A program made the translations under genes and the position numbers. From a virus (taxonomy: Duplodnaviria; Heunggongvirae; Uroviricota; Caudoviricetes), in the IMG/VR virus record IMGVR_UViG_2630968808_000006: DNA of 4,298 nt. One strand, written 5' to 3'. Position 1 is the first letter of the stretch, and each line of letters starts with the position of its first letter. This document shows positions 1 to 4,298 of the stretch, piece by piece. The notes beneath the pieces were generated by a model. That model was not told the origin of the DNA. It saw only the letters and a list, made by a program, of their open reading frames with translations, and did not search any database.

Positions 1-615
1 GTGAGCGAAATTAATTACCAGGCACTGCGTGAAAAGGCAGAAAAAGCAACGAGTGGTGTGTGGTCGCTCGAATATGGAGATGGCCGATTTGATGGTGATG
101 ATGCACTAATTCATCGCGAGGCTGCTGGATATATTCCCATTTGCAGAATTGAAGGAGCGCATCCTGAAAGCGGTTTCGATGAAGATTTCCAAATAGAACA
201 GCAGGCCAATGCTGAATTCATCGCCGCAGCCAATCCGGCTACCGTGCTGGCACTACTGGATGAACGGGAAAGAAACCAGCAATACATCAAACGCCGCGAC
301 CAGGAGAACGAGGATATTGCGCTAACGGTAGGGAAGCTGCGTGTTGAGCTGGAAGCAGCAGAGAACAACCTTATTGATAGTGAATGCCATGTTGCTGAAC
401 TGGAAGAAGCGCTACGCGATAAGCAGGCGTTACTTGAAGCCTCAGAAAAGCGCATAGCAGAACTGGAAGCGCGGGAAATACTGCTCCCGGAACGTAGCAG
501 CATGCTTCATCGAACAGATTTTCACGAGGATTATCAAACGGTAATGGCATACAAAGTTTCTGAAGTCATCGCTGCAATCCGCGCCGCAGGCATTCGCATC
601 AAAGAAGGTGAGTAA
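1..615 (+). CDS. ea22: Ea22-like early-left accessory protein (204 aa) with a central coiled-coil
   Basis: ORF opens with GTG at window position 1 and translates MSEINYQALRE...; central block LLDERERNQQYIKRRDQENEDIALTVGKLRVELE and C-terminal AGIRIK.GE match what I recall of lambda Ea22; heptad-like E/A/L-rich centre; sits upstream of xis/int as in lambdoid phages. Start coincides with the window edge, so the true N-terminus could lie upstream. Confidence 0.8.
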   Translation: MSEINYQALREKAEKATSGVWSLEYGDGRFDGDDALIHREAAGYIPICRIEGAHPESGFDEDFQIEQQANAEFIAAANPATVLALLDERERNQQYIKRRDQENEDIALTVGKLRVELEAAENNLIDSECHVAELEEALRDKQALLEASEKRIAELEAREILLPERSSMLHRTDFHEDYQTVMAYKVSEVIAAIRAAGIRIKEGE

Positions 616-791
616 TGCGTGTGGCATGTATCGGCTTGTTACCGTACCCGACTCGTTTTTGGGCTTCTGCGCTAATTGCAAAGCCACATATCCTGATGGC
701 TGACAACATCATCCCGGCACCAAAGCGCCGCCGTACCGGTATTGCAGCGGCACGACGTGCAGCAAAGAAACGCAGGAGAGCAAAACGATGA
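615..791 (+). CDS. small hypothetical protein (58 aa) with a strongly basic Arg/Lys C-terminal tail
   Basis: Not in the supplied ORF track (below its length cutoff); read by hand: ATG at 615 overlaps the ea22 stop (TAATG) and its TGA stop at 789-791 overlaps the next ATG (ATGA). Translation MRVACIGLLPYPTRFWASALIAKPHILMADNIIPAPKRRRTGIAAARRAAKKRRRAKR. GGTGA Shine-Dalgarno-like motif a few nt upstream. Support is overlap geometry only. Confidence 0.4.
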   Translation: MRVACIGLLPYPTRFWASALIAKPHILMADNIIPAPKRRRTGIAAARRAAKKRRRAKR

Positions 792-979
792 AAAACCGTA
801 AAGCAAAGATGCTTATTTCCCGTATATACAGCCGTTGCTATCCCAGCCAGTGGTTGAGAGTTAGCAATCGCCGTATGGTGTTGTACTTATATTCTGGAAT
901 TGCCAGAGAGGGAATCAAAGATAAGCCCAGCGCAGCGCAAAACCGCTGGAAAAACCACTTGCGCACTAAAGGAGAGTAA
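788..979 (+). CDS. hypothetical basic protein (63 aa)
   Basis: ATG at 788 preceded by AGGAGAG (771-780) with about 9 nt spacing; start overlaps the upstream stop (ATGA); its TAA stop (977-979) is 1 nt from the next start. No recognisable domain. Confidence 0.4.
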   Translation: MKNRKAKMLISRIYSRCYPSQWLRVSNRRMVLYLYSGIAREGIKDKPSAAQNRWKNHLRTKGE

Positions 980-980
980 T

Positions 981-1199
981 GTGCCAACATTATTCAGAAA
1001 AGAATATCCGCGAAGAAGTCGAATAACAGAACTCCTGTTTCTCATTCTGTTTATCGTGTTGATGATACCGATATCCCCGCTAATTTTTGTCTGGGCAATC
1101 GGGAAAATAATTGAGCCAGTTATTGAATTGTATAACGACGTGGTATGGGCGTCGTTCAACACTCTGCACAATAAAATTAATCCATATAAGGAAAACTGA
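981..1199 (+). CDS. small single-pass membrane protein (72 aa from the GTG start)
   Basis: GTG at 981 lies 6 nt after GGAG (971-974), in frame with track ORF 900..1199, whose 5' part overlaps the previous ORF in another frame. Product begins (M)PTLFRKEYPRRSR, followed by one hydrophobic stretch LLFLILFIVLMIPISPLIFVWAIG and a ~30-aa polar tail. By hand count about 38% GC versus about 50% in ea22, with rare codons ATA, AGA and CGA. Confidence 0.5.
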   Translation: MPTLFRKEYPRRSRITELLFLILFIVLMIPISPLIFVWAIGKIIEPVIELYNDVVWASFNTLHNKINPYKEN

Positions 1200-1200
1200 A

Positions 1201-1623
1201 ATGACCACCATTACCAGAGAAAGCGCGGAGATTAAATCATTCATCACTGGCTTCCTGAGCGACCCGGCGCACGATAACCAATCATCAAACAGTCTGTTTG
1301 CTGATGTGTTTCGTATCGCGCTGGCCTCGCTGGAAGCAGAACCAGTTGCATGGACTGATGACGAGGAACTGCGAGATGTTGAGCAAATTGGTTTAGGTTA
1401 TTTATTACCTTGTCCTCCAGATAAATACGCAGACCCGCGTCGTGTAATTCCGCTGTATCGTGTGCCGCCAGCTCCCATAGTGCAGGCACAGGGAATTGAG
1501 ATCGCAATAAACGAACTGGTGTCTCTGTCCCCACAGCTGGATAAACGAGCGGTGGAAACTCTTTCTATGGCTGTGGCACATCTACGTAAACTGGTTAAGA
1601 AGCAGTTGCAGGTTAAGGAATGA
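1201..1623 (+). CDS. hypothetical protein (140 aa); N-terminal domain paralogous to that of the next ORF
   Basis: ATG at 1201 preceded by AAGGAA (1188-1193) with 7 nt spacing and placed 1 nt after the upstream stop; the track's longer form from 1111 would overlap the previous gene and lacks an RBS. Shares RIALASLEAEPVA and VIP(L/V)Y..AP motifs with ORF 1627..2475. Confidence 0.65.
   Translation: MTTITRESAEIKSFITGFLSDPAHDNQSSNSLFADVFRIALASLEAEPVAWTDDEELRDVEQIGLGYLLPCPPDKYADPRRVIPLYRVPPAPIVQAQGIEIAINELVSLSPQLDKRAVETLSMAVAHLRKLVKKQLQVKE
1312..1353 (+). repeat. copy 1 of a 42-nt in-frame direct repeat encoding RIALASLEAEPVAW
   Basis: CGTATCGCGCTGGCCTCGCTGGAAGCAGAACCAGTTGCATGG; about 33/42 nt identical to 1717..1758, with most differences at codon third positions. 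Confidence 0.7.
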
Positions 1624-2752: not shown

Positions 2753-2785
2753 CAATCCTCGCACTCGCGGGGATTTCTTTTATCT

Positions 2786-2812
2786 GAACTCGCTACGGCG
2801 GGTTTTGTTTTA
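2786..2812 (+). terminator. weak hairpin plus U-rich tract after the 94-aa ORF (possible attenuator)
   Basis: CTCGC (2789-2793), loop TACG, GCGGG (2798-2802) with one G-U pair, followed by TTTTGTTTTAT. Short stem, interrupted T-run. Confidence 0.2.
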
Positions 2813-2824
2813 TGGAGATGATAA

Positions 2825-2992
2825 ATGCACTTCCGAGTCACAGGTGAATGGAATGGAGAGCCATTCAACAGAGTTATCGAAGCAGAGGACATCAACGACT
2901 GCTATAACCACTGGATGATATGGGCGCAGATAGCGCATGCAGACGTAACCAATATTCGAATTGAAGAACTGAAAGAACACCAAGCCGCCTGA
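2825..2992 (+). CDS. 55-aa hypothetical protein, positional equivalent of the small ORF between ea8.5 and xis in lambda
   Basis: Not in the ORF track (below its length cutoff); read by hand: ATG at 2825 is 7 nt after GGAG (2814-2817); translation MHFRVTGEWNGEPFNRVIEAEDINDCYNHWMIWAQIAHADVTNIRIEELKEHQAA; TGA stop (2990-2992) lies in the loop of the terminator hairpin. Distance to xis and int matches my recollection of the lambda map. Confidence 0.55.
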   Translation: MHFRVTGEWNGEPFNRVIEAEDINDCYNHWMIWAQIAHADVTNIRIEELKEHQAA

Positions 2993-3004
2993 TGGCGGTT
3001 TTTT
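2982..3004 (+). terminator. Rho-independent terminator (GC stem, UGAU loop, T6 tail)
   Basis: GCCGCC (2984-2989), loop TGAT (2990-2993), GGCGG (2994-2998) giving 5 G-C pairs plus flanking G-U and A-U pairs, followed by six T (2999-3004). On the minus strand the stem is followed by non-T sequence, so it is + strand specific. Confidence 0.6.
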
Positions 3005-3005
3005 C

Positions 3006-3045
3006 TTGCGTGTAATTGCGGAGACTTTGCGATGTACTTAACACT
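3006..3045 (+). promoter_or_regulatory. cII-activated pI-type promoter: TTGC-N6-TTGC box flanking the -35, with the -10 and start point inside the first codons of xis
   Basis: TTGC (3006-3009), GTGTAA, TTGC (3016-3019) is the tetranucleotide direct repeat recognised by lambda CII at pRE, pI and paQ; it lies about 13-26 nt upstream of the xis ATG (3032), matching the lambda pI arrangement. The -10 hexamer is not unambiguous (candidates TGTACT or TACTTA around 3033-3040). Confidence 0.6.
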
Positions 3046-3250
3046 TCAGGAGTGGAACGCACGCCAGCGGCGCCCAAGAAGCCTTGAAACAGTTCGTCGA
3101 TGGGTACGCGAGTGCAGGATATTCCCTCCTCCGGTTAAGGATGGAAGAGAGTATCTGTTCCACGAATCAGCGGTAAAGGTTGACTTAAATCGACCAGTAA
3201 CAGGTAGCCTTTTGAAGAGGATCAGAAATGGGAAGAAGGCGAAGTCATGA
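3032..3250 (+). CDS. xis: excisionase Xis (72 aa), lambda type
   Basis: ATG at 3032 is 8 nt after GGAG (3020-3023); product MYLTLQEWNARQRRPRSLETVRRWVRECRIFPPPVKDGREYLFHESAVKVDLNRPVTGSLLKRIRNGKKAKS matches lambda Xis as I recall it; overlaps int by 23 nt as in lambda. Confidence 0.95.
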   Translation: MYLTLQEWNARQRRPRSLETVRRWVRECRIFPPPVKDGREYLFHESAVKVDLNRPVTGSLLKRIRNGKKAKS

Positions 3251-4298
3251 GCGCCGGGATTTACCCCCTAACCTTTATATAAGAAACAATGGATATTACT
3301 GCTACAGGGACCCAAGGACGGGTAAAGAGTTTGGATTAGGCCGAGACAGGCGAATCGCAATCACTGAAGCTATACAGGCCAACATTGAGTTATTTTCAGG
3401 ACACAAACACAAGCCTCTGACAGCGAGAATCAACAGTGATAATTCTGTTACGTTACATTCATGGCTTGATCGCTACGAAAAAATCCTCGCCAGCAGAGGA
3501 ATCAAGCAGAAGACACTCATAAATTACATGAGCAAAATTAAAGCAATAAGGAGGGGTCTGCCTGATGCTCCACTTGAAGACATCACCACAAAAGAAATTG
3601 CGGCAATGCTCAATGGATACATAGACGAGGGCAAGGCGGCGTCAGCCAAGTTAATCAGATCAACACTGAGCGATGCATTCCGAGAGGCAATAGCTGAAGG
3701 CCATATAACAACAAACCCGGTCGCTGCCACTCGCGCAGCAAAATCAGAGGTAAGGAGATCAAGACTTACGGCTGACGAATACCTGAAAATTTATCAAGCA
3801 GCAGAATCATCACCATGTTGGCTTAGACTTGCAATGGAACTGGCTGTTGTTACCGGGCAGCGAGTTGGTGATTTATGCGAAATGAAGTGGTCTGATATCA
3901 TAGATGGCTATCTTTATGTCGAGCAAAGCAAAACCGGCGTAAAAATTGCCATCCCAACAACATTGCATGTTGATGCTCTTGGGATATCAATGAAGGAAAC
4001 ACTTGATAAATGCAAAGAGATTCTTGGCGGAGAAACCATAATTGCATCTACTCGTCGTGAACCGCTTTCATCCGGCACAGTATCAAGGTATTTTATGCGC
4101 GCACGAAAAGCATCAGGTCTTTCCTTCGAAGGGGATCCGCCTACCTTTCACGAGTTGCGCAGTTTGTCTGCAAGACTCTATGAGAAGCAGATAAGCGATA
4201 AGTTTGCTCAACATCTTCTCGGGCATAAGTCGGACACCATGGCATCACAGTATCGTGATGACAGAGGCAGGGAGTGGGACAAAATTGAAATCAAATAA
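3228..4298 (+). CDS. int: tyrosine site-specific integrase Int (356 aa), lambda type
   Basis: N-terminal arm-binding region MGRRRSHERRDLPPNLYIRNNGYYCYRDPRTGKEFGLG; catalytic residues at lambda Int positions: R in VTGQRVGDL (R212), H308-x-x-R311 in TFHELRSL, H333 and Y342 in LLGHKSDTMASQY (positions counted from the translation). GAGG RBS 7 nt upstream. Complete ORF ending TAA at 4296-4298. Confidence 0.97.
   Translation: MGRRRSHERRDLPPNLYIRNNGYYCYRDPRTGKEFGLGRDRRIAITEAIQANIELFSGHKHKPLTARINSDNSVTLHSWLDRYEKILASRGIKQKTLINYMSKIKAIRRGLPDAPLEDITTKEIAAMLNGYIDEGKAASAKLIRSTLSDAFREAIAEGHITTNPVAATRAAKSEVRRSRLTADEYLKIYQAAESSPCWLRLAMELAVVTGQRVGDLCEMKWSDIIDGYLYVEQSKTGVKIAIPTTLHVDALGISMKETLDKCKEILGGETIIASTRREPLSSGTVSRYFMRARKASGLSFEGDPPTFHELRSLSARLYEKQISDKFAQHLLGHKSDTMASQYRDDRGREWDKIEIK

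Follow-up and report, generated by a model that had tools for sequence, protein, structure and literature searches.

The leftward early region of a lambdoid prophage contains a short open reading frame (ORF) at positions 981–1199, on the plus strand of the stretch of viral DNA analysed here (4,298 nucleotides; hereafter, the window). Two questions are raised by this locus: whether such a short, AT-rich ORF is a genuine gene, and what its product, a predicted membrane protein of only 72 residues, would do for the phage.

The ORF starts with GTG and ends with TGA, and the coordinates, strand and 72-aa product proposed in an initial annotation of the same DNA were confirmed. The product belongs to the named family DUF4014, a membership that the initial annotation had overlooked. 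It matches the Pfam profile (PF13198) with residues 2–72 on profile positions 2–72 of 72 (90.7 bits, E 7.9e-26, gathering threshold 23.2 bits) and PHROG 1832 with residues 1–72 on 1–72 of 72 (151.7 bits, E 9.3e-45); the best match in NCBIfam is insignificant (E 0.087, 13 bits against a cut-off of 181). The family signature is complete, comprising 72 codons, the YPRxSR motif, a central P-[I/V]-S-P and a C-terminal LHNK[I/L]NPY[K/R]E. NCBI lists an identical protein from 21 contigs under the name 'DUF4014 family protein [Escherichia coli]'. Identity of the window protein is 92% to L0067 of phage 933W (AAD25412) and H0077 of VT2-Sakai, which have the same 72-aa length and occupy the same ea22-to-xis-int region of a lambdoid prophage. 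It falls to 51% for epsilon15 gp46, epsilon34 gp27, g341c gp23 and ES18 gp39, and to about 49% for HK225 gp56; the homology to epsilon15 gp46 and g341c gp23 covers 72 of 72 residues (tblastn E 7e-11 to 8e-12), and the YPRxSR motif, the P-I-S-P kink and the C-terminal motif are shared with both. Judged by these similarities, the gene is the one already catalogued as 933W L0067 and epsilon15 gp46, an ordinary hypothetical gene that is annotated in the 933W genome (GenBank AF125520).

The family is narrow and locally abundant. A profile search of 1.84 billion representative proteins yielded 23 clusters at 50% identity, several of which are fragments or fusions. Its named members are from Escherichia, Shigella and Salmonella, apart from one phage record each from Hafnia and Actinobacillus. 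The scan of species-representative genomes, for which narrow search patterns were used, gave three loci, one of them on a probably contaminating contig of 427 nt labelled 'Xanthomonas pisi'. Homologous DNA is present in 1024 of 5426 complete E. coli genomes, with 1735 copies in total and at most six per genome; among the matches listed, all are annotated as 'DUF4014 family protein'. Frameshifted and truncated copies also occur in databases.

The coding status of the ORF was assessed by comparison of eight phage and prophage copies, from the window, 933W, phage Bas106, an E. coli chromosome, epsilon15, g341c, ES18 and HK225. The frame is intact and exactly 72 codons long in all eight, which answers the check for frame disruption in relatives suggested in the initial annotation. 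The start position is likewise identical in 8/8, with GTG in four copies and ATG in the other four, and Shine-Dalgarno sequences of the AAGGAG or GGGGG type precede the starts. A further, nearly identical copy in a Rac-like prophage (locus L016) has ATG at the position of the window's GTG. The dN/dS ratio among the eight copies is 0.12–0.36; between the 933W-type and epsilon15-type groups pS reaches 0.71–0.78, so that synonymous sites are at or near saturation, with pN about 0.30. Codons 2–16 are under purifying selection (pN/pS 0.21 within groups), and the GTG start is supported for this reason. The same result conflicts with a 54-aa version from an internal start that is annotated in some records. 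A TTG-started version of 99 aa (900–1199) was also rejected; it overlaps the upstream gene, and homology to other copies begins only at position 968. An antisense ORF of 94 aa (887–1171) is interrupted by two or three stops in the epsilon15-type copies. The ORF is short, AT-rich and starts with GTG, as a chance ORF or a functionless remnant might, but the fixed length, the purifying selection, the conserved start and Shine-Dalgarno sequence and the 1735 annotated copies in complete E. coli genomes leave this reading with next to no probability, and the selection and start-conservation evidence already refutes it. It is virtually certain that 981–1199 is a genuine conserved gene for a DUF4014 membrane protein.

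All genes in the window are on the plus strand, and most overlap or are separated by 0–3 bases. An ea22-like gene (1–615; Pfam Ead_Ea22, 4.6e-35) is followed by two small ORFs (615–791 and 788–979), the DUF4014 gene, orf140 (1201–1623), a gene for a DUF551 protein (1627–2475), an ASCH-like ORF (2468–2752), orf55 (2825–2992), the excisionase gene xis (3032–3250) and the gene for a lambda-type integrase, int (3228–4298). The ea22-like gene is therefore not the immediate neighbour assumed in the initial annotation, since the two small ORFs intervene. Terminator-like hairpins are found in the two larger intergenic gaps, of 72 and 39 bases. An exact look-up of the 72-aa protein identified the window as positions 9021–13318 of a lambdoid prophage locus (L013), whose leftward early operon contains N, RecT, DUF2737, ea22, DUF4014, xis and int and adjoins ybhC; the prophage is integrated at the lambda attachment site, beside ybhC. 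A second copy of the identical protein is encoded in a nin (rightward early) region.

The DUF4014 gene belongs to this N-dependent, antiterminated leftward operon. It lies one nucleotide from each neighbour, and a consensus scan found no promoter nearby, though a weak promoter could escape such a scan; the sole promoter-like site in the whole window is at 4258–4285, against 6.9 expected by chance. Having no promoter of its own and being placed one base from each neighbour, the gene is probably expressed early after infection or induction through antitermination, and not in the repressed lysogen. The arrangement of a lysogenic-conversion gene (moron), with its own promoter and terminator, is not seen for this gene. 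In the other contexts compared the gene is also found in early operons, although the operon varies: it occupies the distal pL region in 933W, g341c and ES18, as in the window, and the rightward operon in HK225 and in the prophage loci L007 and L016. In epsilon15 it is downstream of the replication genes, near the genome end, and it is also carried by the P1-like plasmid prophage D6.

The locus between the recombination genes and xis is often termed the exo-xis or ea region. Studies of phage Phi24B reported higher degP and htpX with the wild-type phage than with a mutant from which the exo-xis region is missing. We do not treat these data as a DUF4014 phenotype, because no DUF4014-like gene is annotated in the exo-xis region of Phi24B. 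An exo-xis modelling review does not cover the DUF4014 gene.

The initial annotation had suggested a separate acquisition of the gene because of its low GC content and atypical codon usage. The low GC is real: 38.4% in 981–1199, compared with 49.1% in the ea22-like gene and 47.2% in the whole window, and only 0.8% of all 219-nt segments are as low, which makes the gene the part of the window with the lowest GC. The codon usage is ordinary. The GC content at third codon positions is 0.44, compared with 0.41–0.55 in the neighbouring genes, and the dip is confined to codon positions 1 and 2 (0.41 and 0.30). The rare codons are four ATA, two AGA, two CGA and one CTA; these nine compare with 6.5 ± 2.1 expected when the protein is re-coded with the neighbours' codon usage, and the rare-codon fraction of 12.3% is similar to those of int (12.6%), xis (13.7%) and the upstream orf63 (12.5%). 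The same re-coding gives 39.7 ± 2.1% GC, against 38.0% observed for codons 2–72 (z = -0.8). The low GC is explained by a protein rich in I, L, F, K, N and Y, and an origin in foreign DNA, as far as it was argued from composition, was rejected.

The suggestion of separate acquisition itself is nevertheless right, on other evidence, because a segment of 236 bp containing the gene (968–1203) is 98.3% identical over 236 nt to positions 9988–10223 of L016, in the nin region of the Rac-like prophage, whereas there is no homology to that locus on either side. The segment thus behaves as a gene-sized mosaic cassette that moves between unrelated contexts; it runs from the ribosome-binding site through the coding sequence of DUF4014 to the start codon of the gene behind it. 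The same limits are seen in comparison with 933W (968–1203, 93.6%) and nearly the same with L007 (962–1203, 88.9%), and the homology to L016, L007 and 933W stops in every case at 1203. The left junction (968–983), AAAGGAGAGTAATGTG, contains the Shine-Dalgarno sequence AAGGAG and the start codon, and is repeated before neighbouring small genes; the right junction (1197–1203) is TGAAATG, which includes the stop codon, one base and the start of orf140. Copies of the 933W type have 1 nt between this stop and the next start, and those of the epsilon15 type have 3 nt.

The left junction recurs where gene content changes. The window gene directly follows an orf63-like gene, whereas 933W has a different downstream gene and an extra gene for a 69-aa Cys-rich protein inserted between its orf63-like gene and L0067. 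In 933W, AAAGGAGAGTGAT followed by ATG or GTG precedes both the Cys-rich gene and L0067, and the two BLAST segments that align the window with 933W overlap at exactly 968–983. In the prophage L003 homology to the window stops at 983 and a different gene follows; both this prophage and phage phiV10 have the 69-aa Cys-rich gene in place of DUF4014. The repeated sequence AAAGGAGAGTGAT is a plausible exchange site.

The close coupling to the next gene raises the possibility that the protein is a membrane partner or anchor of the translationally coupled downstream product, which begins with a module of the form MTTITKE...ALASLEAEPVA and is often fused to DUF551. A gene with this module follows DUF4014 in seven of eight loci; in six of these it begins 1–4 nt past the stop, and in L007 an inserted HNH gene precedes it. 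The next gene in epsilon15 and g341c has the same N-terminal module as that in the window, and phage D6 has an in-frame fusion of the two ORFs, with a product of 152 aa. The order ead/ea22, DUF4014, DUF551 is found in both epsilon15 and the window, although the ead-like gene is directly upstream of gp46 in epsilon15 and ea22 is two small ORFs upstream in the window; ES18 also has an ead-like gene upstream. Against such a partnership, the next gene in 933W is a different one (L0066), an HNH gene separates the two in both L016 and L007, and the conserved N-terminal module may be a mere recombination joint. Because the cassette ends at the next start codon, DUF4014 and the downstream gene are not inherited as a unit, and we regard a role as partner of this product as unlikely.

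The protein itself can be divided into four parts. The N-terminal segment (codons 1–16, 981–1028) is basic, with RKEYPRRSR at residues 6–14 and five K/R and one D/E among the first 15 residues, and its motif F/L-R-K-x-Y-P-R-x-S-R is conserved in 87 full-length members. It is followed by a predicted transmembrane segment (codons 17–41, 1029–1103) with a 25-residue hydrophobic stretch; the best 19-residue Kyte-Doolittle window (residues 19–37) scores 2.96. The basic N-terminus and single hydrophobic helix of the initial annotation are in agreement with these results. Alignments of 26 and 87 sequences show a conserved central P-[I/V]-S-P, then W38 and G41, with P30, I31 and W38 nearly invariant. 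Codons 42–58 (1104–1154), KIIEPVIELYNDVVWAS, are predicted to form an amphipathic helix adjacent to the membrane, with a hydrophobic moment of 0.41–0.50 at 100 degrees (0.50 for residues 40–57); E45, Y51 and D53 are invariant in the 26-sequence alignment. The last part (codons 59–72, 1155–1196) carries the motif F-N-x-L-H-N-K-[I/L]-N-P-Y-[K/R]-E, in which F59, L62, H63, N64, K65, N67, P68 and K70 are invariant in the same alignment. Epsilon15 gp46, ES18 gp39 and P0126, the most divergent member, all retain the motif, and HK225 gp56 has M in place of L62. This tail is the most constrained part of the protein, having the lowest pN/pS within groups (0.14).

A short polar tail, as described in the initial annotation, gives an incomplete picture of the region behind the hydrophobic segment: the region is 31 residues long, predicted to be helical to residue 66 and amphipathic near the membrane. 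An AlphaFold2 model built on the 26-sequence alignment (mean pLDDT 80, and 92–95 in the hydrophobic segment) consists of a helix at 14–28, a break at 29–31 and a second helix at 32–66. Neither Foldseek against the PDB nor a profile search of PDB sequences gave a match, as expected of a single helix. Five K/R residues on the N side of the hydrophobic segment, compared with one K on the C side, predict an N-in, C-out orientation by the positive-inside rule, so that the conserved tail would be periplasmic. The prolines in the middle of the helix would also allow a re-entrant hairpin with both the N and C ends in the cytoplasm. Features of a lipoprotein or a cleaved signal peptide were not found; the protein lacks cysteine and has no signal-peptidase site that is conserved, as homologues have A, I, V, G, F or other residues at position 39 (A in VWA|IG), while the N-terminal region is conserved.

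Small membrane proteins of prophage early regions often suggest toxins or division inhibitors, and the initial annotation had proposed a division inhibitor, an exclusion or abortive-infection factor, or a toxin. The sequence searches lend no support to these suggestions, since the Pfam scan returned DUF4014 only and the PADLOC and Rfam scans were empty. A membrane-damaging or growth-arresting effector, similar to Kil or DicB, to a holin or to another toxin, would fit a small hydrophobic protein from a prophage early region, and the frameshifted or truncated copies would fit costly expression, although they fit decaying prophages equally well. Lambda Kil, Rac KilR and Qin DicB are likewise small prophage early-region products, unrelated in sequence to DUF4014 as judged by Pfam. 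Their targets are the cytoplasmic FtsZ or MinC, and none of the three is known to span the membrane. The Pfam scan (E ≤ 0.1) found no Kil, KilR, DicB, Hok or holin domain, Rfam (E ≤ 1) found no antisense or antitoxin RNA in the window, and the antisense ORF is broken in the epsilon15-type copies. Retention of an intact gene in about a fifth of E. coli genomes also speaks against a damaging product, and the strong conservation of a polar C-terminal motif points to a specific partner and not to general membrane damage. An effector of this type is accordingly quite improbable.

The small size, the predicted single pass through the inner membrane, the exchangeable accessory cassette in temperate phages and the high prevalence with up to six copies per E. 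coli genome are also consistent with an early blocker of superinfection, which would prevent incoming phages from injecting their DNA or would block receptor function. HK97 gp15 and T4 Imm are small membrane proteins that offer a likeness for this role. The PADLOC defence and exclusion models gave no family at E ≤ 0.1 for the 72-aa protein, Pfam gave DUF4014 alone, the gene lacks its own promoter, which expression in the lysogen would require, and there is no experimental hint of exclusion; we consider such a function improbable.

Two functional labels are attached to the family. Full-text literature searches, whose coverage does not include the 2007 epsilon15 genome paper, yielded no experiment on any DUF4014 member. 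The label 'released from the phage upon host infection' is used in the description of PHROG 1832 and in the RefSeq entries for 933W, epsilon15, ES18, HK225 and g341c, and would make the protein a virion component; no source for the label was found. The depositors' own GenBank records give 'hypothetical protein', 'gp39, function unknown' or 'acetyltransferase inhibitor', and in podoviruses and siphoviruses, as well as in a P1-like plasmid prophage, the gene is located in an early operon at a distance from the structural genes. A virion protein is therefore highly improbable.

The other label, 'O-polysaccharide acetyltransferase inhibitor', appears on epsilon15 gp46 in an earlier RefSeq version and on g341c gene 23, which was deposited as 'similar to NP_848254.1 acetyltransferase inhibitor protein epsilon15p46'. 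An acetyltransferase-inhibitor label is also found on the HK225 protein (JQ086371), on those of phages P6 and MG40 and on two E. coli proteins. In the current GenBank record of epsilon15, gp46 is a 'hypothetical protein' and only gp28 is credited with the transacetylase function, so the label for gp46 may have been withdrawn. Epsilon15 gp28, the 'transacetylase repressor', and gp22, the 'alpha-polymerase inhibitor', are small and hydrophobic like DUF4014 (60 and 66 aa, respectively), and both are proposed to switch off a host O-antigen enzyme in serotype conversion. In contrast to the single segment of DUF4014, gp22 has two transmembrane domains according to its record, and both genes belong to a conversion module near the tailspike and integrase genes, not to an early operon. 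Neither protein has significant homology to DUF4014; the N-terminus of gp28 weakly resembles that of DUF4014 (PRKS..E.LF.I), but the hhalign score (E 5e-4, probability 30%) is not significant. Phage phiV10, of the same genus as epsilon15 and with many epsilon15-like genes, O-acetylates the O antigen through Oac and has no homologues of gp46, gp28 and gp22, which is a single case in a highly mosaic region. The resemblance of gp28 and the gene content of phiV10 are both weakly in line with the inhibitor label.

Taking these lines together with the anatomy of the protein, we propose the following mechanism. The 72-residue protein would be made early after infection or induction and insert into the inner membrane, with the basic N-terminus and its YPRxSR motif in the cytoplasm, a membrane helix kinked at P-I-S-P, an amphipathic helix and, facing the periplasm in the predicted orientation, the near-invariant LHNK[I/L]NPY[K/R]E tail. 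It would then bind a host envelope protein and block it, one molecule per target. Short conserved motifs on both sides of the membrane are the reason for proposing a binder or blocker, and we give an even chance to the protein being a binder or inhibitor of some host envelope protein; an enzyme of 72 residues is unlikely.

The target would be a membrane-bound sugar O-acyltransferase, with the result that surface glycan made after infection would lack the acyl group. Such an enzyme is proposed because inhibition of an acetyltransferase is the only function that has ever been attached to the family. Acyltransferase-3 enzymes would be candidate targets, for instance the O-antigen acetylases or, in E. 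coli, enzymes that transfer acyl groups to enterobacterial common antigen or to periplasmic glucans; the LHNK[I/L]NPY[K/R]E tail would form the inhibitory contact. We put the probability of the mechanism as a whole, an early inner-membrane inhibitor of a membrane sugar O-acyltransferase, at roughly 0.3. An O-acetyltransferase as the specific target is possible but rather doubtful.

Several observations speak against acetylation as the process affected. DUF4014 is abundant in hosts that have no evident O-antigen acetylase target, such as those of the Shiga-toxin phages of E. coli O157:H7; to our knowledge, no native O-acetylation of the O157:H7 O antigen has been described. Phage HK225 was grown on E. 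coli K-12, a strain without O antigen. DUF4014 genes are located in early lytic operons, and not beside lysogenic-conversion genes as are epsilon15 gp21, gp22 and gp28. The hosts differ as well: epsilon15 and g341c infect Salmonella of group E1, whose O antigen is O-acetylated, whereas the host of the window prophage is E. coli, with no evident target.

A precedent for stand-alone phage proteins of this size is provided by Gnarl1–3 (PMC12373910), accessory proteins of 40–90 aa that alter the O antigen and are thought to act on host glycan enzymes. Gnarl1 and Gnarl3 come from lytic phages and Gnarl2 is Mu E6; Gnarl3 binds the cytoplasmic GalU (PMC12373910). They resemble the proposed DUF4014 function in being small, stand-alone phage proteins with no enzymatic role. 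DUF4014 is not itself one of the three, as their origins are different and the DUF4014 motifs are absent from the supplementary files of that study (PMC12373910). More broadly, DUF4014 proteins might be stand-alone inhibitors of membrane sugar O-acyltransferases, produced early in lytic growth by a range of unrelated temperate phages, including Shiga-toxin phages, which would remodel the surface with no phage enzyme; we regard this generalization as quite doubtful.

The cassette of 236 bp with its repeated ribosome-binding-site junction is a neat example of the swapping of single genes between phage early regions. Selection has preserved the gene that it carries in early operons of phages of the lambdoid, P22-like, epsilon15-like and P1-like kinds, where it is intact, among them the Shiga-toxin phages of O157:H7. 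If the acetyltransferase-inhibitor label is true, the family would represent a widespread remodelling of surface glycans by a tiny inhibitor, a theme lately revived by the Gnarl proteins. What DUF4014 does in temperate phages, those with Shiga-toxin genes included, is a reasonable question for experiment, and it is the main interest of the gene.

Two ORFs upstream of the DUF4014 gene lies a 58-aa ORF (window 615-791, plus strand) assigned to PHROG 13831 (E 5.8e-40), whose C-terminus (PKRRRTGIAAARRAAKKRRRAKR) is extremely basic. This ORF overlaps the ea22 stop codon at its start (TAATG) and the start of the following ORF at its stop codon (ATGA). At the start of DUF4014 itself, an ATG at window 979-981 lies 2 nt 5' of the GTG (TAATGTG) but is out of frame and would encode a peptide of just 15 aa. 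Frameshifted DUF4014 copies called from this out-of-frame ATG account for some database entries (e.g. P0114 and P0128, beginning MCLHYSEKN...).

The DUF4014 slot can also hold a gene for a 69-aa Cys-rich protein (MAIAASYTMHLYCDC...), located either beside DUF4014 or in its place. This gene was found in phage 933W (L001 2559-2774, the L0068 region), in the compared locus L003 (2421-2630) and in phage phiV10 (p52); directly upstream it carries the AAAGGAGAGTGAT junction that also precedes DUF4014. The start of the annotated 933W L0068 (95 aa, GTG start) has probably been placed too far upstream.

Downstream of DUF4014, the genes at window 1201-1623 and 1627-2475 are tandem relatives; both begin with an M-T/N-x-I-T-K/R-E ... 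ALASLEAEPVA module. The same module starts the gene following DUF4014 in epsilon15, g341c, ES18, HK225 and Bas106, and in the compared locus L007 the module-bearing gene comes after an inserted HNH gene. The C-terminal parts attached to the module vary, DUF551 often being among them. The P1-like phage D6 has lost the DUF4014 stop codon, and in-frame continuation into the next ORF yields a 152-aa fusion (orf103, L012 2501-2956).

Two terminator-like hairpins with T-runs (window 2754-2775 and 2786-2805, plus strand) are located in the region between the ASCH-like ORF, orf55 and xis. A third terminator-like hairpin on the same strand (2982-3001) reads AAGCCGCC TGAT GGCGGTTT and is followed by TTTTCTT. 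It is contained in a segment (2941-3007) that is 100% identical to 933W, while the flanks diverge, and may represent a conserved site of termination or processing 5' of xis. The genes xis and int share 23 nt (window 3228-3250). The last base of the window is the end of int and the next gene in the source contig is ybhC, which places the prophage at the classical lambda attachment site.

PHROG 1832 and RefSeq records NC_000924, NC_004775, NC_006949, NC_019717 and NC_013059 name the DUF4014 product 'released from the phage upon host infection'; the depositors' GenBank records for this gene lack that name. Its use for this early-operon membrane protein seems to be a mis-annotation that has been propagated. 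Contamination most likely explains an E. coli-type DUF4014 fragment (88% identical as protein, ~92% as DNA) in a 427-nt contig of a Xanthomonas pisi draft assembly (NZ_JPLE01000252.1).

Several unrelated contexts have a free-standing HNH endonuclease gene directly beside DUF4014: on the upstream side in HK225 (L011 2118-2495), and on the downstream side in L007 (4221-4586) and in a Rac-like prophage (L016 10221-10586). Gene 24 of g341c, also upstream of DUF4014, is annotated as HNH in the RefSeq copy but as a DNA repair ATPase in the GenBank record. The spread of the DUF4014 cassette might be aided by homing-type endonucleases.
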